Positions 16,478 to 43,424 of a stretch of DNA of 64,000 bases are shown piece by piece. A program made the translations under genes and the position numbers. Source of the DNA: Candidatus Micrarchaeota archaeon (GTDB lineage Archaea; Micrarchaeota; Micrarchaeia; Micrarchaeales; CABMGC01); NCBI GenBank assembly GCA_021848065.1, contig JAJZNA010000016.1:49044-113043 (forward strand). The letters run 5' to 3'. Within the stretch, counting starts at the first letter, position 1; every line of letters starts with the position of its first letter. Under the pieces are notes generated by a model. The model had not been told where the DNA came from. It was given only the letters and a program-made list of their open reading frames with translations, and ran no database searches.

Positions 16478-16550
16478 AGCCCCATAGTCTAGTGGTCAAG
16501 GATAGCGGGCTCTGAACCCGTTGACGCCAGTTCGAATCTGGCTGGGGCTA
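16478..16550 (+). tRNA. tRNA-Gln (anticodon CUG)
   Basis: Cloverleaf read by eye. Acceptor is AGCCCCA/TGGGGCT. T-arm is GCCAG-TTCGAAT-CTGGC. Anticodon stem GCGGG/CCCGT has loop CTCTGAA, giving anticodon CTG. 73 nt, no intron, no encoded CCA. Confidence 0.9.
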
Positions 16551-16846
16551 TTGCCATCTTGTGTCTCTCTTCCTCTGTTATAATTCTAGTCATGTGGTCT
16601 AGCCATATGGCTCTAAGCCAGTACATGGGACATGCCAAGCCTTCCAGACGATCCGCCCTGCGTAGACATTATTCCTGGATGATACATGGTTTCATAGTCT
16701 ACCCTAACGCATTAAATATGAAAACAAATCGTTGATACTACACATTAGATGGTTAGATCCCTTTCAAGACTTCTGATAACAAAAAGAATACCCTGCACTT
16801 GCCTGGCCTTAAGGTAGCTGCTCGTAGGGATAGCATAGCTCAGATT

Positions 16847-17758
16847 ATGGGTGACATACTTAGAACACCGCTCTCAGTACGTAATTATACTGCGAAAATA
16901 GAAGAATGCATAACATGGGGCCCTAAACATTCTGGCATATTTGATAGGTTAATATCAAATTGGTTTCGAATAGAGTATTACGGCAGCCAAGTGAGTTTTT
17001 CACATTCTGGAGATTTGATATCCTTTTCAACTCCGAATTACTTCAGTGGTAATGAGACGTACGGCAGGGCAATAGGCAGCGCGTTAACCCAGGTCAGAGG
17101 CATTGACAACTATCTGGGAGTCATTGGTGGATTGGATCCTGCACTCATACAACTGTGCTGTCTTAGTGCCGGGAATTCCCTCAGAAGCGCCAGGCTAGTG
17201 GATATGGCTGCGGAGCAGGCATTTTATGCTATGCCAAAACTCATCTCATATGATAGGGGGATGATCCATGATCTTGAAGATGGGTTATTCGCCGACCTTG
17301 TGGCTTCTAAAACCATCGGGGTTTTCCAAGATTATCCGGTAAGACTACCACACATTACCTTATCTGTAGGAAAGATCGAAAATGAGGTGGCTTCCGTTGC
17401 AGTATCTGGGATATATTTTATCTATGTATCTAACGCATTCCAGATGAATATATTTGAAAACGGCCCGGCAGGTAACTACGTTATAAAGGGCCATGCTGGC
17501 CTTGATAAAACTGGCAGTTTGCTAAATTCAATACTTGCGAATAAAAATTTCGTGCAAGGTAGCCTGATTATGATATCTGAAGCAAATAGCCACGTTTCCA
17601 TAATACTTCAGAAAAGCGCCGACGGGTTCAGCGTGTTCTCATTTGTAAGTAAGGACGCAAATCCCAATACCGGACTAGAGCACCATTCCCACACACTTGA
17701 TCTAGCTGCACAAATTGCATTCGTAAACGACTTGGCAAGTCTTAAACGATTGGATTAA
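16847..17758 (+). CDS. Hypothetical protein (orphan)
   Basis: Long ORF in the lower-GC segment after tRNA-Gln (track version starts at TTG 16799). No motif recognised. Confidence 0.45.
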   Translation: MGDILRTPLSVRNYTAKIEECITWGPKHSGIFDRLISNWFRIEYYGSQVSFSHSGDLISFSTPNYFSGNETYGRAIGSALTQVRGIDNYLGVIGGLDPALIQLCCLSAGNSLRSARLVDMAAEQAFYAMPKLISYDRGMIHDLEDGLFADLVASKTIGVFQDYPVRLPHITLSVGKIENEVASVAVSGIYFIYVSNAFQMNIFENGPAGNYVIKGHAGLDKTGSLLNSILANKNFVQGSLIMISEANSHVSIILQKSADGFSVFSFVSKDANPNTGLEHHSHTLDLAAQIAFVNDLASLKRLD

Positions 17759-18134
17759 TGACTTGCCTTGTGCCAAAAAGCCCGAGAGTCAGATTCAAAG
17801 TTCTAGCAATATGGGGCTACTGCAATCTTGCATAACTCTTACTGCCGTCCATACTGCCTCTGATAAAAATAGGAGTTTGGATAAGATTACGTGATTAATT
17901 GGTTTATATCATCTTGTCGGGCTACAAAAAGCTGATTAAAGGATTTGCTTAATGGCCGGGGGAATGGCGTACCTCTCCGCAGGGAAGATCCGGCCATATT
18001 ACGCCTTCACAATTAATCTTATGGAATTGCTCATTTATACGCATTTCGCAATGGTTTGACAAATGTGCAGTGCCATTGGGCTCTTTTCAATGTTGTAGAA
18101 ATTGCTTTTAACCACTCCGAAGCATAGTGTACTT

Positions 18135-18599
18135 ATGGCTACAGTAATAACGTCCATTCTACCCTTGGATAAAAAAACGCACATGGAGATCATGCAGCTG
18201 GCCAGGATATGCGGCGCATCTCCAAACGAAGTGATAGCCGGCCTTGCGCGCCATGGGGTTAAAGTGCATGCAGCCAACACTGCGCAGGAAGCCCTCCAGG
18301 CACTAATGCGCCGCCCTATTGCTGCTAGCCTCCCAAAGCAACAACTCTCCGGGACCTCGCAAGGCGCCATTGACGAGGCCGATGGCATCCTGATTGAGAT
18401 AGATGCAGAAACTGGCCGTAAACTGAATTTCCTGAGCAAAGCCGGTGGTAAGACACGCTCTGCTGTGCTATCGCATCTTGCAAGGACTATGGTGGATCTT
18501 GAACGCTGGCGCGAGCAGATATTCTACGATCCTGAGCTCTCAGCTTCTCTTGGCAAAGAGATGATGGTAATTCTAGGACTACCTGCTGAACGCAATTGA
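18135..18599 (+). CDS. Putative tandem ribbon-helix-helix (CopG-like) DNA-binding protein
   Basis: Two segments fit the RHH strand-helix-helix pattern: VITSILPLDKKTHMEIMQLARICGASPNEVIAGLARHG and GILIEIDAETGRKLNFLSKAGGKTRSAVLSHLARTMV. The track ORF starts at TTG 18102. Confidence 0.45.
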   Translation: MATVITSILPLDKKTHMEIMQLARICGASPNEVIAGLARHGVKVHAANTAQEALQALMRRPIAASLPKQQLSGTSQGAIDEADGILIEIDAETGRKLNFLSKAGGKTRSAVLSHLARTMVDLERWREQIFYDPELSASLGKEMMVILGLPAERN

Positions 18600-18700
18600 T
18601 GCCAATTGCAGTATTTAGGGAAATTCAGAACTTCCACTAGCATACAAAATGTACACTGCTTTTTAAAGCTATCCAGCAGAAAAGAATATTGCGACCAAAT

Positions 18701-19000
18701 ATGTATTACAAATCATATGCAAGGATAAGGAAGACCGAGAAGCTCTTGGAGAGGGTCGCATACATATCAGTCGGCTCCGATATATTTATCGCAGTATCCA
18801 CATACCTGGTGCTAAAGAATGTCCAGTACTCAAACTCACTCCTCATGCTCAGTGACTACGTCGATTTCCTATTCGTTGTCATAGCAGTATCCCTCTTCCT
18901 CATGGTCATACTGCTCAAGTATGCATCAGTCTTTCCAAAGCGCATTGACTCATTCGTTTTCAACCTGATGCATAAGAAGTACAGGCCTAGCGCAAGGTAA
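18701..19000 (+). CDS. Hypothetical small membrane protein
   Basis: Two hydrophobic stretches (VAYISVGSDIFIAVSTYLVL and FLFVVIAVSLFLMVILL). No motif recognised. Confidence 0.35.
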   Translation: MYYKSYARIRKTEKLLERVAYISVGSDIFIAVSTYLVLKNVQYSNSLLMLSDYVDFLFVVIAVSLFLMVILLKYASVFPKRIDSFVFNLMHKKYRPSAR

Positions 19001-19053
19001 AAGTGCCTGCTCGGCCTATCTTCTCATTTTTGCCCCTCAAATAAACCAAAAGC

Positions 19054-19063
19054 TTTAAATATA
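19054..19063 (+). promoter_or_regulatory. TATA box of the EF-1alpha/uS10 operon
   Basis: AAAAGCTTTAAATATATT has a purine-rich BRE-like stretch followed by TTTAAATATA. A GGTGA Shine-Dalgarno lies 6 nt before the ATG at 19163. Confidence 0.5.
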
Positions 19064-19162
19064 TTATCTCCTATACTGTATAGCGTTCAGCATCGACAGA
19101 TTCTATAAAAGCTAGGCTTCTTCATGCTGTGCAAATATCAACAATAATACTTGGTGAATTAA

Positions 19163-20434
19163 ATGGCAGACAAAAAACCGCACATGAATTTGATATTCAT
19201 AGGCCACATAGACCACGGAAAGTCAACTACAGTAGGAAGGCTGCTCTACGAGACAAAGGCAGTATCAGAGCAGGACATGAAGAAGCTCAAGGATGAAGTA
19301 GCAAAGTACAACAGACCTACATTCGAATTCGCATTCGTAATGGACCAGCTCAAGGAGGAAAGGGAAAGGGGAATAACCATAGACATAATGCACAGGGATT
19401 TCCAGACTTCCAAGTACTACTTCACCATAATCGACGCTCCTGGACACAGGGACTTCGTAAAGAACATGATTACAGGGGCAAGCCAGGCAGACGCCGCAGT
19501 GCTTGTCGTATCAACTCCGGACGGAATACAGTCACAGACAAGGGAGCACGCATATCTCGCAAGAGTTCTTGGAATAAACCAGCTCATAGTCGGACTCAAC
19601 AAGATAGATGCCGCTGGATTTGACAAGGCCAAGTTCGATGACACAAAGGCAAAGGTCACCGAACTGCTCAAGACCGTAGGTTACGATGTCAGCAAGGTAC
19701 TTTTCATACCTTACTCTGCACTCGAAGGATCAAACGTGGCTGCAAAGTCAGACAAGCTTCCATGGTACACTGGGCCAACGCTTCTCGAGGCACTCGACCT
19801 GCTTGTGCTTCCAAAGAAGCCTGTGGACAAGCCTCTTAGGCTTCCAGTGCAGGACGCATACTCAATCTCAGGTTTCGGAACAGTGCCTGTAGGAAGGGTA
19901 GAGACCGGAACCATGAAGGTAGGGGAAAATGTCATAATAATGCCTGCAGGAGTAAAGGCTGAGGTCAAGTCAATAGAGATGCACCACCAGCAGTTGCAGC
20001 AGGCAGAGCCTGGTGACAATGTCGGTTTCAATGTAAAGGGAATCGAAAAGAAGGACGTGAAGAAGGGCGACGTGGTAGGGCCTGTCAGCAACCCTCCAAC
20101 AGTGTGCTCAGAATTCACTGCACAGATAGTTGTGATAAACCACCCGACCGCAATAGCACCTGGATACACGCCTGTCTTCCACATCCACACTGCGCAAATA
20201 GCTGCCACAGTGACCGAGATAGTGGAGAAGAAGGACCCTAAGACCGGCCAGACGCTTCAGAAGAATCCAGAGTTCATCAAGAATGGAGACGTTGCAATAG
20301 TCAAGATAAAGCCTACAAGGCCAATAGTCATAGAGAAGTTTGCGGACTTCCCACCTCTTGGCAGGTTCGCAATAAGGGACATGGGCCAGACGGTTGCAGC
20401 AGGAGTAGTCCTTGATGTAGTCAAAAAGCAGTGA
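19163..20434 (+). CDS. tuf: Translation elongation factor 1-alpha (aEF-1A)
   Basis: 423-aa ORF with [18 protein letters not shown] and NKID GTPase motifs, and an overall EF-1alpha pattern. Confidence 0.97.
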
Positions 20435-37993: not shown

Positions 37994-38839
37994 TCATTTG
38001 CCTACAATTTTAAAAGGATTGCCTTGCTTCATCATTATCTTCTTGGACCTCAGGGTTGCATATTCAATCAGTTTTGACGTTCCGGCTGCTAAGCCAGCGA
38101 CCATGGCAGAGAGGCTGCCTAGTATGACCAGCATATCGCTTGTGGACAACCACTCCTTGAATAATGCAAATGTGACTGCTGCTGATGCGAGGCCGACAGT
38201 GGCCGGGTGCGATGCAAATCTTTTAGACATGTTCTTCTTGGAGCTTTGTTTTTGCCCCTTCGCCTTTCTCTTCGCTACAAAAGGCGCAGTTACCGTTGTA
38301 GCCATGGCGAGCAATACTACGGTTGTTCTGGAATAGTTGAGGTCCCTCATCGCATACGCGCATGAGGCCACAGCATATGCCGATGATGACAAGACGAATG
38401 CAAGTGTTCTTTTATAGGTCTTTGTTGCAAGCTCCACTATGGCCACTTTGGCATGGGCTTGGCGCGCCAGGTCGTAGGCGATTTTGTTCCGTATTTTCCT
38501 AGTTTCACGTCTAAGTTCCTTCAATCCAGTTATCCCTACTGCCTCTAAAACGCCTGCATCTGATGCCTGCACATAAGACTGAGTTAGCCTTATGCCCCTT
38601 GTCATCCCCGCCCGGTACGTGTACGCACCGCTTCTGGCTGCAATCCGAAACAGTTCTGCCGTTCTTAGACTAGCATCTATACGCGAATTAGTCGTAGCTT
38701 TGCTATAGGTCAAATTATTGGCTGGGTCTACGCATGCTCTAAGCGCGGCAATGCACTGGTCTATTTCACGCATGTGCCTTATTTTAGCTGCTGAGCCTTC
38801 AGGCGGAGCAAGCCTAGTCTTGAATGGGATTCGCGGCAT
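37994..38839 (-). CDS. Hypothetical membrane protein
   Basis: 281-aa ORF with a helical N-half and several hydrophobic segments in the C-half. No motif recognised. Confidence 0.45.
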   Translation of the reverse strand: MPRIPFKTRLAPPEGSAAKIRHMREIDQCIAALRACVDPANNLTYSKATTNSRIDASLRTAELFRIAARSGAYTYRAGMTRGIRLTQSYVQASDAGVLEAVGITGLKELRRETRKIRNKIAYDLARQAHAKVAIVELATKTYKRTLAFVLSSSAYAVASCAYAMRDLNYSRTTVVLLAMATTVTAPFVAKRKAKGQKQSSKKNMSKRFASHPATVGLASAAVTFALFKEWLSTSDMLVILGSLSAMVAGLAAGTSKLIEYATLRSKKIMMKQGNPFKIVGK

Positions 38840-38866
38840 CTCTATCCATATCTTGGGGATTTTTCT

Positions 38867-38875
38867 GATATTTAA
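38867..38875 (-). promoter_or_regulatory. TATA box (TTAAATATC) of the 37994..38839 gene
   Basis: Minus strand reads GGTTAAATATCAGAAAA, ending 27 nt before the ATG. This matches the window-wide TATA consensus TTTAAATATC. Confidence 0.45.
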
Positions 38876-38924
38876 CCTCTTGCAGTATATTTATAAACCA
38901 TAAAACCAGATATCCAACATTATC

Positions 38925-38937
38925 TTAGAAATTCTAA
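38925..38937. repeat. Palindrome copy 1: TTAGAAATTCTAA (perfect 6-1-6)
   Basis: Read directly. It is its own reverse complement apart from the central base. Confidence 0.9.
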
Positions 38938-39645
38938 TAATTATGTGGTAACAAGTATTATATGTGCAGTATTTGAATTGATAACCCTGTTTAAAACTAA
39001 GCCAAAGGCAGTTGTCCCTCAAACTCCTGAAAAGGCTTTGATGGGAGTGAATAGAGGTGCTGAGACTGCAGCCACAGTTGTTGCTGCGGCAGCGCTGGTA
39101 GGCACCTTGCTCTTGTCAGTGCCTGTTCATCTAAGGCTGCACCATCAAGAACTAATTCTTGCCCAAGATCAGGCACAGGCAGGTTTTCGTCCCAAGCCAA
39201 GAGACTTTTGCAGAACGTACAGATACCTCAAGAAGAACCGGAAACTGCAAAATAAATGCAACATAGGGCAGCATAAGCGTGGGCTACCTTAAAGGCCCTT
39301 CAAAGTTATTGCGTCAAAAGGTGGACCTAGATTAGAACATAAAGGCCAGCAGGTGAGGTGGCTGCCATGGCGCATAACGAAAGGCGGTATCAACATGTGA
39401 AAAGGCAGTTTGTATTCAAGAAGGCCGAAGGATACGTGCCTAGGGGCACTTTGACAGACACTGTTGCATTGCCGCAGTAGTATCCTTATGCCTGGGCCAT
39501 ATGGTGGCAAACAATGCAGCTAAGCGCAATAGCTCGATAAAAGGCATCCTGGAGAGACTGCTAATGAAAATGTCAGCCCAATAAGTGCCTCTCCGTGAAA
39601 ATTGCATTTGCTTAGTAAGCAGGCCAATATATATCTAAAACTTAT

Positions 39646-39658
39646 TTAGAAATTCGAA
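39646..39658. repeat. Palindrome copy 2: TTAGAAATTCGAA
   Basis: One mismatch in the right arm. Shares ~35 nt with copy 4 (TTAGAAATTCNAATATT..TT..GATTTC). Confidence 0.85.
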
Positions 39659-39853
39659 TATTATTTTGATTTCTCTAAATTTGCGTTTTTATGCATTATT
39701 TTGTCTGCCATATAAATTATCAGAATAAAAATAATGCGAAAAAATAGGCTTATTTACGCTCAAATTCTGTCGTCGGAAACAACTCCATTGCCTTTTCAGG
39801 GCGCCACAGCAGATCAATTTAGTGCTTTCCATAGTTATGGTGTTAATTTAATG

Positions 39854-39867
39854 ATTTCCATGGAAAT
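39854..39867. other. ORB-like perfect dyad ATTTCCATGGAAAT
   Basis: 14-bp perfect palindrome in ORF-free DNA. TTCCAT half-sites lie nearby at 39826, 40009 (inverted) and 40045. Confidence 0.5.
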
Positions 39868-40378
39868 GATATGAATATCCCAATCACGAATAAAACAACC
39901 CTTTTTGGCATGGTTTCTGGGTCTAGCCATATGCCTTAACCAAAACAGCCTTAATTCCAAAAATCTGAAATGCAACGCTTTAAGGAAAGTAAATTTCATA
40001 CCATAAGCATGGAATCTTCAGGATTCTGTTTCATTTTTAAATGAATTCCATATTTACGAAATTGCAATAGGCTATTCCGGGTTTTAGGAGAAATCTTATT
40101 CCACCGCTGGCCCCTTTCCCCAGTGCCCTTTTGTCAGGTTCTTCAACATCCCTCCTTAACGCAGTTATTGCCGTTGTAGTGTGTCCCCCATGGCTTATCA
40201 GTATTCCTTGAATGTGCTGCCTCCAGTCTCATTCGCTCAGTTATGACTTGCACATATATCTAGTTTCTTCTTTATACGCGGCGAAGCCATCTTATATCCA
40301 TTCAGGATAATGCGTTGCTTCCTAGCTGAATATACTAAGTGCAGTCACTAGTGGGCATCCTAATCCTACTAAGATTAT

Positions 40379-40392
40379 TTAAGAAATTCTAA
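40379..40392. repeat. Palindrome copy 3: TTAAGAAATTCTAA
   Basis: Core AGAAATTCTAA is intact, with one extra A in the left arm. It ends 4 nt from the stop codon of the kinase-like gene. Confidence 0.8.
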
Positions 40393-40396
40393 CTTT

Positions 40397-41017
40397 TTAA
40401 TTCCTTAGCAGATCCCCTAGCCTGCTGCGGTCTCTTCCCAGCCTTGACTGCCTTACTCCAAAATGGGCATATGTGAAATTCCACTGGCTTGGGTCTATCA
40501 GGACTACTTCATTAGACTCAGTAATCATTATATTGGACGCTTTGGCGTCCCCATGGCCAATACGGCGCCTGTGCAGCGTTTTAAATGCCGCTCCCACATT
40601 CGCGAGTACGGCATCAAGCTCGCTCCTGCTCACTAACCCTTCTACGAACTCCCGGCTAAGAGCCTCCAGAGTCTTGCCTTGCACGCGCTCCATGGCATAC
40701 CCTATCACCTTTCCATAATGAACTATTGCAGCAACTGGCTGCACTACAAATTTAGGTGCTGCCCGATACATCTTAGCCAGATGTATCAACTCATTGAAAA
40801 TACCTCTGCCATCATATCCTATCTTATGCGTTTGCCTATCTGGGGTTACATCGAGTTTTAACCTGCAAGCGCTTGCAGAGGCATTGTCCAATTTGAAGAA
40901 TATCCCTGAGTCAGCTTCAAGGCGCCTTAAATGCATTAGGTCTTCTTGACGCCTTATGTCTATTACAGGAACCCTGGCAATAAACCTGACATGTGTAGAT
41001 TCCCTTAACATGCGCAT
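40397..41017 (-). CDS. Atypical small protein kinase-like protein (Bud32/RIO/Kdo-kinase-like C-lobe)
   Basis: MERVQGKTL, LHRRRIGHGDAKASNIMI (HGD..xxN catalytic loop) and VVLIDPSQ (metal-binding Asp). The N-terminal ~90 aa has no recognisable Gly-rich loop. Confidence 0.55.
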   Translation of the reverse strand: MRMLRESTHVRFIARVPVIDIRRQEDLMHLRRLEADSGIFFKLDNASASACRLKLDVTPDRQTHKIGYDGRGIFNELIHLAKMYRAAPKFVVQPVAAIVHYGKVIGYAMERVQGKTLEALSREFVEGLVSRSELDAVLANVGAAFKTLHRRRIGHGDAKASNIMITESNEVVLIDPSQWNFTYAHFGVRQSRLGRDRSRLGDLLRN

Positions 41018-41045
41018 ACATTATCAGACATATTCGGAGTTTTCT

Positions 41046-41055
41046 GATATTAAAA
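41046..41055 (-). promoter_or_regulatory. TATA box (TTTTAATATC) of the kinase-like gene
   Basis: Minus strand reads CATTTTAATATCAGAAAA, ending 28 nt before the ATG at 41017. Confidence 0.45.
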
Positions 41056-41076
41056 TGCGCCTATTAAAGAAGATTT

Positions 41077-41089
41077 TTAGAAATTCCAA
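41077..41089. repeat. Palindrome copy 4: TTAGAAATTCCAA
   Basis: One mismatch in the right arm. Lies ~59 nt upstream of the kinase-like gene start. Confidence 0.85.
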
Positions 41090-41136
41090 TATTTTCTTAG
41101 ATTTCAGCATATCTTTAATGCTATTCTAATATTCTA

Positions 41137-41149
41137 TTAGAAATTCTGA
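41137..41149. repeat. Palindrome copy 5: TTAGAAATTCTGA
   Basis: One mismatch in the right arm. Lies 14 nt beyond the stop codon of the 41164..41853 gene. Confidence 0.85.
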
Positions 41150-41163
41150 TATAGTATGTAATA

Positions 41164-41853
41164 TTAGTCCGTATTCTTATGGCCTATGCCTGCATTTTCA
41201 AGAAGTTCCTCTCCAGAAGTCATCCTTGCGATGCGCTGGGATAGCTCTATGCCATAGGATGCTGGAAAACTGGTTCCGTATCCAAGATATCTGCATAGGG
41301 ACATCAATTCACCAATGCACTTATAAGTGCCTAAAAATTCGTCGGACTGTAGTAAGTTGACCTCCTCCGCAGAAGCAGCATTCCACATTTTCAAGGTGAG
41401 CGCATCTAGAAAATTAACTTCGGATCCCAATATGATGGATAGGGCCATTGTTACTATTCTCATCGAAGGATCGCTCATGCCCGGATGTACATCCCTCAAT
41501 ATGATCTCGAGATGGCTATAAACTGCTGCGTGCCATGTGCGCATTGAATTGAGCTTGTTTTCTGCTATTGCAACTGCAGACTCTTCTGTTGTCGGGATCC
41601 TTTCCTCTGGCCTAAATGTAGATTGTCCTAAGGAAAAAGTAGTTACCCCGTTTACCGCATCTTCTCCTGCCGACCTTCTTCTAATATTTTTCAAATGCTC
41701 TTCACGGAAGAATTCGCCAAATCTTTCTATAGCCTTAAGATGAGCCACCAAAAAGGTATCCATCGAGAGCTCCACATGACTAAAGCTCACCGCACTATAG
41801 TCTCTAAACACGGTCGAACAATCACCATAGTCTGATTTTTGGCCCACATTCAT
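41164..41853 (-). CDS. Hypothetical protein (all-helical, orphan)
   Basis: 229-aa ORF bracketed by palindrome copies 5 and 6. No motif recognised. Confidence 0.45.
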   Translation of the reverse strand: MNVGQKSDYGDCSTVFRDYSAVSFSHVELSMDTFLVAHLKAIERFGEFFREEHLKNIRRRSAGEDAVNGVTTFSLGQSTFRPEERIPTTEESAVAIAENKLNSMRTWHAAVYSHLEIILRDVHPGMSDPSMRIVTMALSIILGSEVNFLDALTLKMWNAASAEEVNLLQSDEFLGTYKCIGELMSLCRYLGYGTSFPASYGIELSQRIARMTSGEELLENAGIGHKNTD

Positions 41854-41859
41854 AAATGC

Positions 41860-41872
41860 ATTGAATTTCTGC
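41860..41872. repeat. Palindrome copy 6 (inverted, degenerate): minus strand GCAGAAATTCAAT
   Basis: The exact core AGAAATTC plus AAT is on the minus strand, 6 nt upstream of the ATG at 41853. Confidence 0.6.
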
Positions 41873-41934
41873 TGAATAACAAGGCAGTTTGTTAAACTTG
41901 CTACAGGATATGCAAATGCCTTAGTTTCCGTGGA

Positions 41935-42333
41935 TTAATCATGAAGTGCAACTCCATAGCCATTGGTATTCCTATGGCGCAGAGCTGCCTTTACGGCTTC
42001 ATCAGGCTCTTCCATGAGCATCTCCAGGAGATTGCGCAGTTTCGAATAGGATGAGTCTTCCCACAGCCTTGACTTTCTCGGATCGCCGTATTCTGCACCG
42101 TCCCTGAATATATCGACAAGATATCCTGCGGCAAGCGCACGCACTTCGTAACGCCTATGCAGTGAGAGTGCAGTGTACACGTCTATGGCAAGGGGATCGC
42201 GCGGATCTAGCTCCACCCAAGTCTCCCTGGCAAGAATTCGTATCTGCTTGTAGTCTAGCCTTTCTATCTCTTCTATACGGCTAGCCATTTGCAACCTGGA
42301 CATTGGGCCTTCTGAAAAGCATTGCCTGGCCAT
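41935..42333 (-). CDS. Hypothetical protein (possible HEAT-like repeats)
   Basis: 132-aa ORF. YEVRALAAGYLVDI and DEAVKAALRH are faintly HEAT-like. Weak evidence. Confidence 0.4.
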   Translation of the reverse strand: MARQCFSEGPMSRLQMASRIEEIERLDYKQIRILARETWVELDPRDPLAIDVYTALSLHRRYEVRALAAGYLVDIFRDGAEYGDPRKSRLWEDSSYSKLRNLLEMLMEEPDEAVKAALRHRNTNGYGVALHD

Positions 42334-42353
42334 AGTATCTGCTCGATTTGGGT

Positions 42354-42364
42354 GATATTTAAAT
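42354..42364 (-). promoter_or_regulatory. TATA box (ATTTAAATATC) of the 41935..42333 gene
   Basis: Minus strand reads CATTTAAATATCACC, ending 20 nt before the ATG. Consistent with a leaderless transcript. Confidence 0.45.
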
Positions 42365-42434
42365 GTTTAAGCAAGGAAGTCGTCCATTTATAAATAACCG
42401 TTTTGAAGCAGTTGGCTATCTGCTGCAGATAGGG

Positions 42435-42935: not shown

Positions 42936-43424
42936 TCACTGCCTTACTTCTGGCAGAAGTACTGCTATCACGGCAGCACCTTTTGGACTCCTGTGATGGT
43001 TTATGAGGGCGTTCTGCACGGATATTACCTCAGACCCGTCCATTGATCGGATAATCTGCTTTATGGTTTCCTTGGCTACTGTCCTCGCCGACTTGCTGGA
43101 AACTTCTGCAGCAATAGACATCTTCTGGCTATTCAGTGCCTGCGCTTTATCGGAGGAATCGCTTCTCTTGGCGAGTTTCAGGAAGGGCATGTTGGAGATG
43201 GCAGAGGTTACCTTTACTACAAGCCTTCTGCTATCGTCCAGGCTGTAGTTGCGCACAAGTTCTACCAGCGCGTAGACCAATACGTCTCTTCTTGAGATCT
43301 TGACCAGCTCAAAACCGAAACGGCTCTCTGAAAATGGGCTTTGGGCATATCTAAGAAGCGCTTCGTCATGTGCATTGAGCTTGCCTGCTAATCTCATGTG
43401 GCCTATTTTCTCCTGACCATACAT
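42936..43424 (-). CDS. Hypothetical protein
   Basis: 162-aa ORF. No motif recognised. Confidence 0.4.
   Translation of the reverse strand: MYGQEKIGHMRLAGKLNAHDEALLRYAQSPFSESRFGFELVKISRRDVLVYALVELVRNYSLDDSRRLVVKVTSAISNMPFLKLAKRSDSSDKAQALNSQKMSIAAEVSSKSARTVAKETIKQIIRSMDGSEVISVQNALINHHRSPKGAAVIAVLLPEVRQ

Follow-up and report, generated by a model that had tools for sequence, protein, structure and literature searches.

What is the role of a short palindrome that recurs several times within one low-GC island of orphan minus-strand genes in a Candidatus Micrarchaeota metagenome contig? The first-pass annotation of the window (the entire 64-kb stretch of DNA analysed) had described six copies of this TTAGAA-N-TTCTAA element and had offered three explanations for it: an operator for a dimeric regulator, a recombination or cassette-boundary site, or a terminator-promoter module. 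The analysis presented here indicates that the palindromes look most like sites for a dimeric regulator and not like recombination or cassette sites. They would thus represent an ordinary type of element in an unusual organism.

A search of the window recovered the 8-mer core AGAAATTC at exactly the six coordinates given previously, all of them inside 38927-41870 (shuffled sequences had a mean of 2.2). The complete motif, TTAGAA-A-TTCTAA (TTAGAANTTCTAA), has five sites in the window at no more than one mismatch (38925, 39646, 40380, 41077 and 41137). All five are in the same orientation, and the one at 38925 is perfect. To extend the search, the window was stitched with L339 and L341 into 81.6 kb of the same contig. 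Here, too, there was no match besides the five, in agreement with the earlier impression that the motif is not found elsewhere in the window. The dyad is therefore over-represented at a single locus (five sites within 2.2 kb versus none in the rest of the 81.6 kb), the expectation from Markov-1 simulation being 0.18 sites per 81.6 kb, or 0.02 per 3.6 kb of island-like composition. With no copy outside the island in these 81.6 kb, the motif does not behave as a dispersed repeat of the REP or MITE type. The separation is also evident from a position-weight-matrix scan, in which the five sites scored 17.7-22.4 bits and the next best matches 14.4, 12.8 and then below 10. The sixth proposed copy (41860-41872, minus strand) has only the AGAAATTC core, ranks outside the top 30 matrix matches and is probably not a member of the motif, which would leave five copies. 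The ‘weaker relatives’ suggested at 18095 and 18615 likewise score at the background level (at most 7.5 bits). The 10-mer cluster is absent from 80 loci of other Micrarchaeota, motif scans of metagenome and viral collections returned AT-rich noise with no relative of the island among the matches listed, and a literature search with the motif string produced only irrelevant matches.

To place the sites in their genomic context, we compared the window with L088 and L350, the second and third alleles of the island. The first island gene is an orphan of 132 aa (41935-42333, minus strand; promoter TTTAAATATCACCC at about 42349-42362). Also on the minus strand are a 229-aa orphan gene (41164-41853), whose family has two members in 5.8 billion proteins, and a minimal kinase-like orphan gene of 206 aa (40397-41017; Pfam Pkinase, 1.7e-8; Bud32/RIO/Kdo-like) with the promoter TTTTAATATCAGAAAAC at 41039-41055. 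The fourth gene on this strand codes for an orphan membrane protein of 281 aa (37994-38839) and is preceded by the promoter-like TTAAATATCAGAAAAATCC (38857-38875; TATA at about 38868-38880). Between the last two genes lie two units, 38938-39645 and 39659-40379 (the latter with 37.7% GC), which make up a 1.5-kb stretch of 38-46% GC without a convincing ORF, as had been noted before. The lone candidate in the first unit is a plus-strand ORF of 115 aa (38945-39292), shortened to 77 aa by a nonsense change in L088. We found neither an Rfam match nor an RNA-structure signal in this unit, and non-coding RNA was rejected for both units (Rfam matches at E values up to 1 were limited to a chance snoRNA; folding z-scores were -0.2 to -1.1). 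Pseudogene remnants were also rejected, tblastx and blastn between the units being negative, and so were kinase remnants, since a profile of eight small kinases had no match in the six-frame translations. Stop-codon usage gave no hint of recoding in the units.

The individual copies, all read on the plus strand, occupy different positions relative to these genes. Copy 1 (38925-38937; TTAGAAATTCTAA), a perfect 6-1-6 palindrome of 22.4 bits that is identical in L088, lies between two divergent reading frames, the 281-aa gene (ATG at 38839, minus strand) and the plus-strand ORF starting at 38945, 46 nt upstream of the TATA-like box of the former. Copy 2 (39646-39658; TTAGAAATTCGAA; one mismatch, 19.4 bits), again identical in L088, separates the two ORF-less units, and the promoter-like ATAAATTATCAGAATAAAAA is found about 55 nt downstream of it on the plus strand (39712-39731). 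Copy 3 (40379-40392; TTAAGAAATTCTAA) has one extra A or, taken as a 13-mer, one mismatch; the same position carries a perfect copy in both L088 and L350. Copy 4 (41077-41089; TTAGAAATTCCAA) precedes the kinase TATA box by about 22 nt and the kinase ATG by 60 nt (previously estimated at about 59 nt), while copy 5 (41137-41149; TTAGAAATTCTGA) follows the 229-aa gene; both are perfect in L088. The interval between these two copies (41097-41129, plus strand) contains TTAGATTTC (41097-41105) and TTCTAA (41124-41129), which may represent extra half-sites; AGATTTC (41099-41105, inside TTAGATTTC) and the entire TTCTAA are kept in both alleles. Overall, the distances from site to TATA box and from site to start codon are heterogeneous. 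In the window, copies 2 and 3 have no convincing downstream gene, and copies 2, 3 and 5 have no clear promoter.

As stated in the first-pass annotation, the kinase stop codon is followed by copy 3 after 4 nt, and that of the 229-aa gene by copy 5 after 14 nt. These distances are the same in both alleles, and they might suggest a function in RNA or in ending transcripts, the motif being a terminator, a processing site or a roadblock at gene 3′ ends. To assess this, we folded 41-nt windows against controls with shuffled flanks. The hairpins amount to 5-7 AT-rich base pairs (-1 to -6 kcal/mol), with z-scores between -1.9 and +1.1; on the same values we rejected a longer imperfect palindrome around each copy (a hairpin, attC or REP element), which had been suspected by eye. 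Archaeal terminators are marked by an oligo-T tract on the gene strand; there is none here, and no T-run within the motif exceeds three. Moreover, copies 1 and 4 precede genes and follow none, and Rfam searches were negative. We therefore regard an action at the RNA level as very unlikely, and a terminator-promoter module finds no support as a structure.

Repeated dyads in a 1.5-kb ORF-less, low-GC stretch could also belong to a replication origin (ORB-like) or a centromere-like partition system, perhaps that of an integrated element, and orphan genes are typical for mobile DNA. However, no orc1/cdc6, rep, parA or segA-like gene is present within ~10 kb on either side, and GC skew shows no inflection at this position. 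Genes intervene between the sites, which extend over 2.2 kb and flank no unwinding element, and there is no PHROG match except for the generic kinase. Of all the explanations considered, this one appears the most improbable.

Comparison of alleles provides information about constraint on the sites. L088 keeps all five, and four of the five are perfect (0.39 expected). Copy 3 is conserved at 12 of 13 positions between the window and L088, although its flanks are only 37% and 67% identical (P about 0.002-0.013). Thus, at least for this copy, the site is kept significantly above its surroundings. For copies 4 and 5 taken together (24 of 26 positions versus a background of 82%) the difference is not significant (P = 0.12). 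In the intergenic region between the kinase and the 229-aa gene, conservation falls into blocks, namely the TATA box, copy 4, AGATTTC and 35 nt around copy 5, with 34 of these 35 positions conserved between alleles. Copies 3-5 of the window have one defect each, and all three defects fall on the window lineage (P = 0.125 by direction alone). Since the kinase, 229-aa and 107-aa (see below) proteins are all orphans, such comparisons are limited to two or three alleles of one population.

The intervals between copies, previously given as 721, 734, 697 and 60 bp, are correct, and a spacing of ~700-730 bp does describe the window. This spacing is not fixed, though: in L088 the intervals are 721, 791, 727 and 60 bp. 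The ~720-bp period therefore tracks gene size and is no strict repeat length. The similar unit lengths in the window (697-734 bp), together with a similarity that extends over ~30 nt in the same orientation around all five copies, might be taken to mean that an ancestral ~720-bp unit, consisting of a gene with its upstream region, was tandemly duplicated several times and that the motif is the slowest-decaying remnant, now without function. A precedent of a kind exists in Micrarchaeota, as genome L031 has six tandem small-kinase paralogues of 600-790 bp each. Nevertheless, unit interiors have no residual similarity at either the DNA or the protein level, and the profile search described above detected no kinase remnant. 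In addition, all copies match the 13-mer almost perfectly, and four of five do so fully in L088, and neutral decay would not be expected to spare the dyad core. We consider a functionless relic unlikely, but duplication may well have been the source of the copies, which is compatible with an operator function.

A different possibility is that the copies mark boundaries of cassettes or modules, with a site-specific recombinase inserting, excising or swapping ~700-bp gene modules in an integron- or shufflon-like manner. The uniformly oriented copies at the edges of genes and units agree with this, as does the hypervariability of the locus among co-occurring strains (mosaic alleles, kinases of L088 and the window with 48% protein identity, an IS insertion). 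In L088 and L350, positions 40024-40379 of the window are replaced by unrelated DNA that encodes a 107-aa HTH-like protein, and in L088 this non-homologous segment starts right beside copy 3. Some short contigs end near copies as well (at 39636 beside copy 2, and at 41090-41118 between copies 4 and 5), and integrons, too, contain cassettes without an ORF, comparable to the ORF-less units. However, the edge at copy 3 is the sole breakpoint at the motif. Three of the four lie elsewhere, including the other end of the replaced segment (~39970-40024), 41553/41554 and ~42204, and none of these three falls at a motif copy. Identity decays gradually at the mosaic breakpoints, resembling homologous recombination. 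The first-pass annotation had proposed to check for variation between strains in the number or content of units. Site number and order are constant between L088 and the window, and one segment is replaced; no gain, loss or reordering of whole cassettes is seen among the two or three alleles compared.

The machinery expected of such a system is not apparent either. Neither an integrase nor another recombinase, and no adjacent IntI with attI, was found among the island and nearby ORFs scanned, and recombinase domains are absent from the genes at 30-51 kb and from the other scanned ORFs. Instead of attC sites of ~55-140 nt with an extended hairpin, only a 13-nt centre is conserved, with folding energies like those of shuffled-flank controls; within the palindrome it is the centre that is conserved, and the outer ends are not. 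Only one clear mobile element has inserted at the locus, an IS5-like sequence that lies apart from the motif and has a 9-bp target duplication of its own. What had looked like a right-hand island border at 42380 in L088 is really an IS insertion. Synteny in other Micrarchaeota (80 loci gathered via UbiA) stops at window position 42397, where the contig of the closest relative (L004) also ends. Considering that no integrase was found in the scanned ORFs, that hairpins do not exceed chance, that unit interiors are dissimilar and that the breakpoints are mostly off the motif, a role in site-specific recombination is not supported and seems to us unlikely. Slightly less probable still is a variant in which the motif is a module-boundary element of a hypervariable, integrase-less gene-shuffling locus, with orphan modules such as the HTH gene beside copy 3 being swapped at the motif through some other recombination mechanism and the ORF-less units representing empty or decayed ones.

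Of the three explanations offered initially, the operator for a dimeric regulator has the best support: within the 81.6 kb the motif is restricted to the island, and in L088 it is kept in more perfect form and has a copy directly before an HTH-like gene. The 13-bp dyad follows the abcde-WWW-edcba pattern, its half-sites being separated by about one helical turn, as is usual for targets of dimeric HTH regulators. We put the chances that the five sites are an array of operators through which a dimeric HTH regulator controls an island regulon at slightly better than even. In L088, a perfect copy (2049-2061) is followed after 14 nt by the ATG (2076) of the 107-aa gene, placing the copy at -27 to -15 from the start codon. 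Autoregulation of this gene is suggested by the position of the motif between the TATA-like AATAAAATA and the gene's own ATG. Archaeal repressors usually block polymerase recruitment from between the TATA box and the start codon. The 107-aa protein matches Sigma70_r4_2 (E = 1e-4), Sigma70_r4 (2.2e-4) and sigma70-ECF (8.9e-5), all over a C-terminal helix-turn-helix and all below Pfam and NCBIfam thresholds. Its structural model is all-helical but of low confidence (mean pLDDT of 52). The protein has no detectable relatives, a PDB sequence search was empty, and there is no similarity to the TFB of the window. As for the tandem-RHH and HTH-CBS proteins that had been put forward as regulators, we found nothing in their support; the weak sites next to the RHH gene do not score above background.

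From these observations we infer that a sequence-specific, probably dimeric HTH regulator binds the five copies and controls transcription of the 132-aa, 229-aa, kinase-like and 281-aa genes, the best candidate being the 107-aa sigma-70-region-4-like protein of L088 and L350. The other copies, which precede the TATA boxes of the kinase and 281-aa genes by 22-46 nt or stand beside small plus-strand ORFs, would allow bound dimers either to activate or to cooperatively repress. The window allele has no 107-aa HTH-like gene in the 81.6 kb examined. The lack of the candidate regulator gene in this island and the single defect in each of copies 3-5 fit relaxed constraint in this allele. It is possible that the regulator of the window allele is encoded elsewhere in the genome, or that there is none at all.

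Gene regulation in Micrarchaeota and other DPANN is almost unknown, because these organisms have not been grown in culture and carry many orphan genes. The locus offers a testable pair, a 13-bp dyad and a candidate 107-aa protein, and the window allele, without the regulator gene, is a natural ‘knock-out’. The mosaic alleles, divergent kinases and IS insertion at this locus suggest that it plays a part in interactions with a host or with viruses. If the sites are indeed operators, they would define a small regulon of ordinary design, valuable for annotation and choice of targets and not as a new mechanism.

Several known systems share features with the locus. REP/BIME palindromes are also short and follow genes, but here the palindromes are not dispersed, form no hairpin beyond chance and are not accompanied by a RAYT-type transposase. 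Integron attC/cassette arrays, including those reported from archaea, resemble the locus in having repeated imperfect palindromes that mark gene boundaries and share one orientation, as well as units of ~0.7 kb (some ORF-less) and strain variability. They differ in possessing an IntI-type integrase and sites of 55-140 nt with an R''/L''-L'/R' architecture and a stable folded strand, whereas here the sites are 13 nt long, their centre is conserved and the alleles do not differ by whole units. Another parallel is provided by hipBA-type modules, where the HTH partner binds several palindromic operators. In L088 the kinase-like gene adjoins a small HTH gene, with repeated palindromes around the pair. 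However, the kinase gene here comes before the HTH gene, the palindromes extend over 2.2 kb, the minimal ~206-aa kinase resembles Bud32/RIO/Kdo proteins and not HipA, the HTH is of the sigma-r4 type instead of the Xre type, and there is no evidence of toxicity for the island locus. Compared with operators of dimeric HTH proteins in general, the locus is atypical in that the candidate regulator is an orphan with sub-threshold HTH matches, missing from the window allele, and in that some copies lie just past stop codons or beside gene-free DNA. At the same time, the short perfect dyad TTAGA-AAT-TCTAA resembles operators of the Lrp/AsnC type (13-bp abcde-WWW-edcba) and of the LuxR/GerE type, whose HTH is sigma-70 region 4-like. 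As in such systems, several copies occur at one locus in promoter-proximal or intergenic positions and are conserved while their flanks diverge, and one copy stands immediately before a small HTH-like gene, the arrangement expected under autoregulation.

The palindromic element is real and statistically solid. The window contains six instances of its 8-mer core, AGAAATTC, all within 38927-41870, and each was recovered exactly where the first-pass annotation had placed them. The full 13-mer TTAGAANTTCTAA, allowing at most one mismatch, is found five times in the window and in one orientation: a perfect copy at 38925 (copy 1), followed by those at 39646, 40380, 41077 and 41137 (copies 2-5). When both flanks were added, giving 81.6 kb of the 141-kb ENA metagenome contig to which the window belongs (ERZ27237452 k141_667956), these five sites remained the sole matches at this level (0.18 expected from first-order Markov simulation). 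They score 17.7-22.4 bits with a symmetrised weight matrix, against 14.4, 12.8 and below 10 for the runners-up in the 81.6 kb. The first-pass annotation had counted a sixth copy on the minus strand (41860-41872); five copies are real and this one is doubtful, because its weight-matrix score does not exceed background. The 'weaker relatives' suggested near 18.1 and 18.6 kb are likewise no higher than that background; the distances given from the copies to stop codons and start codons proved right. A scan of 80 loci from other Micrarchaeota revealed no cluster of the motif 10-mer. The format of the motif is a 13-bp abcde-WWW-edcba dyad whose outer half-site bases are separated by about one helical turn, as is typical for HTH dimers.

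The copies lie in a low-GC island (41-46% GC around the motif, compared with 47-54% in most of the window, which has a few other low-GC stretches). All relatives of the window's UbiA gene come from MAGs of Candidatus Micrarchaeota, which places the organism among the DPANN archaea, and synteny with other Micrarchaeota stops near 42397. The island genes, all on the minus strand, encode a 132-aa protein, a 229-aa protein, a 206-aa minimal kinase-like protein (Pkinase 1.7e-8; Bud32/RIO/Kdo-like) and, beyond about 1.5 kb without a convincing ORF, a 281-aa membrane protein (37994-38839). A search of 5.8 billion proteins returned no relatives of the kinase and the 229-aa protein beyond allelic variants. 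The 281-aa protein has transmembrane segments at its C-terminus and a very weak SLATT-like match (E 0.055), and in PADLOC the kinase scores best against PD-T4-6-type kinases (E 4e-9, over the catalytic core alone). Both observations hint, though weakly, that the island might be a module for conflict or defence. Elsewhere in the window, another low-GC stretch (44-46%, within 16478-20000) comes after a tRNA-Gln gene (16478-16550) and may be an integrated element; its orphan ORFs include a 319-aa ORF and a 165-aa ORF without a Pfam match. Other strains harbour a mobile element, at least 2.1 kb long (L345 867-2861, L349 802-942, L344 5160-5188 and L098 1-137), inserted in the interval that separates the PsiE-like gene from the 132-aa gene's promoter. 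Its target site, GCAAGGAAG (window 42371-42379), is duplicated over 9 bp (CTTCCTTGC when read on the gene strand), and the ends of the element read TGGGTGTGGGACA... and ...ACAATCCCA. Encoded on it are an IS5-like transposase (sub-threshold NCBIfam match, 9.6e-6), a transposase-associated DUF2080 protein (Pfam 3.3e-16) and a protein of 150 aa.

A non-coding stretch of 1.5 kb is unusual in a compact DPANN genome. We looked in its two units (38938-39645 and 39659-40379) for pseudogene remnants, recoding, RNA-structure signal and Rfam families, and found none. The lone sizeable ORF of the first unit (38945-39292, plus strand; 115 aa, one predicted hydrophobic helix) begins 8 nt past copy 1; in the strain variants L088 and L097, a C-to-T nonsense mutation shortens it to 77 aa. 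A further small plus-strand ORF (39734-39874) lies downstream of copy 2. That the copies themselves are terminators or RNA elements is unlikely: their stems are weak, they have no oligo-T tract and they match no Rfam family.

Comparison with a second allele of the island proved informative. The strain variant L088 (Logan SRR22746133, 5 kb), retrieved through exact-protein look-ups, aligns with the window as a mosaic. It is 98-100% identical left of ~39970, unalignable over 40024-40379 (no residual homology; the local score equals the shuffle mean), 59% identical in nucleotides and 48% in amino acids over the kinase gene, ~80% identical over 41018-41553, 100% over 41554-42203 and 70-90% over 42204-42380. 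A third allele, L350, diverges from the window further to the left. The island is thus a mosaic at the population level (39970-42380 against L088 and L350), and its alternating identity blocks, with kinase alleles only 48% identical, indicate recombination and possibly diversifying selection. Independent assemblies from several samples break at 38996-39043 (L002, L003, L087, L091) and at 41090-41118 (L003, L094, L096), a hint of additional variants that were not sampled or of a hypervariable patch.

Despite this divergence, L088 has five motif sites in the window order, four of them perfect (TTAGAAATTCTAA) and one the TTCGAA variant common to both alleles (0.39 expected). Copy 3, which in both alleles is located 4 nt past the stop codon of the kinase gene, is identical at 12 of 13 positions, whereas its flanks are 37% and 67% identical. 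Between the kinase and 229-aa genes, conservation is concentrated in the TATA box, copy 4, AGATTTC and a block of 35 nt surrounding copy 5; for copies 4 and 5 taken alone it is not significant (P = 0.12).

The mosaic also bears on whether the copies are cassette or recombination sites, which we consider improbable. Copy 3 does adjoin one edge of the replaced segment, and some contigs end close to copies 2, 4 and 5. However, apart from that edge, the mosaic transitions (41553/41554, ~42204 and ~39970-40024) lie away from the copies, identity declines gradually across 39950-40050, and the two alleles share both sites and site order. Moreover, the sites fold no better than shuffled-flank controls, and no integrase or recombinase gene is present among the scanned island and nearby ORFs. 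Initiator and partition genes are likewise absent from these ORFs, which, together with the lack of a skew signal, speaks against an origin or centromere. A neutral relic of tandem duplication is plausible as the origin of the copies, given the ~30-nt similarity that flanks them and the six tandem small kinase-like paralogues (202-264 aa), distant kin of the window's kinase, in another Micrarchaeota MAG (L031 385-5358); arrays of ~700-bp kinase units therefore occur in the phylum. Yet it cannot account for a near-perfect dyad in units with interiors that have no residual similarity.

In place of window 40024-40379, L088 has a segment encoding a 107-aa protein (L088 2076-2399), whose ATG is 14 nt downstream of a perfect copy 3 (L088 2049-2061). 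On the gene strand, a TATA-like AATAAAATA precedes this copy and the start codon follows it. Models for sigma-70 region 4 and ECF sigma factors match the C-terminal part of the protein (...MTFAEIASVLGISTSAANQYYLEGIKRL...), each with a score short of its curated cut-off: Sigma70_r4_2 (E 1e-4, 22.3 bits; cut-off 25.7), Sigma70_r4 (E 2.2e-4) and TIGR02937 (E 8.9e-5). A single-sequence structure model is all-helical, of low confidence. The protein is an orphan, no relatives having been found. L350 has the gene as well (98% nucleotide identity, five amino-acid changes), with a perfect motif upstream, and the window allele has it neither in the island nor elsewhere in the 81.6 kb searched.

A promoter-like element of unusual specificity, TTWAATATCAGAAAAMTCC (TATA plus ATCA...), is common to the island genes (38857-38875, 41036-41054 and 42344-42362), with further instances at 39712-39731 (plus strand) and upstream of 42936-43424. 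In the kinase promoter, an inverted repeat, TATCAGA-N14-TCTGATA, reaches from the TATA box to the ATG and is retained in both alleles with differing spacers.

On balance, we lean towards the motif copies being operator sites of a putative HTH regulator, for which the 107-aa protein is the candidate. A protein bound to copy 3 of L088 would block polymerase recruitment at the 107-aa gene. The kinase TATA box has copy 4 at 22 nt and copy 5 at 82 nt upstream, and the TATA box of the 281-aa gene has copy 1 at 46 nt upstream, positions that would suit activation or cooperative repression. Copies 3-5, the ones located within diverged sequence, are each perfect in L088 and have one defect each in the window, which would fit relaxed constraint once the regulator gene was lost; with all three defects on the window side, the direction test is weak (P = 0.125). 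Most likely, then, the motif is an ordinary kind of cis-regulatory element, with a candidate regulator, in a lineage about which little is known. Autoregulated operator arrays classically show this signature: a short, perfect dyad restricted to a single locus, retained while the sequence around it diverges, and situated directly upstream of a gene for a small HTH protein.
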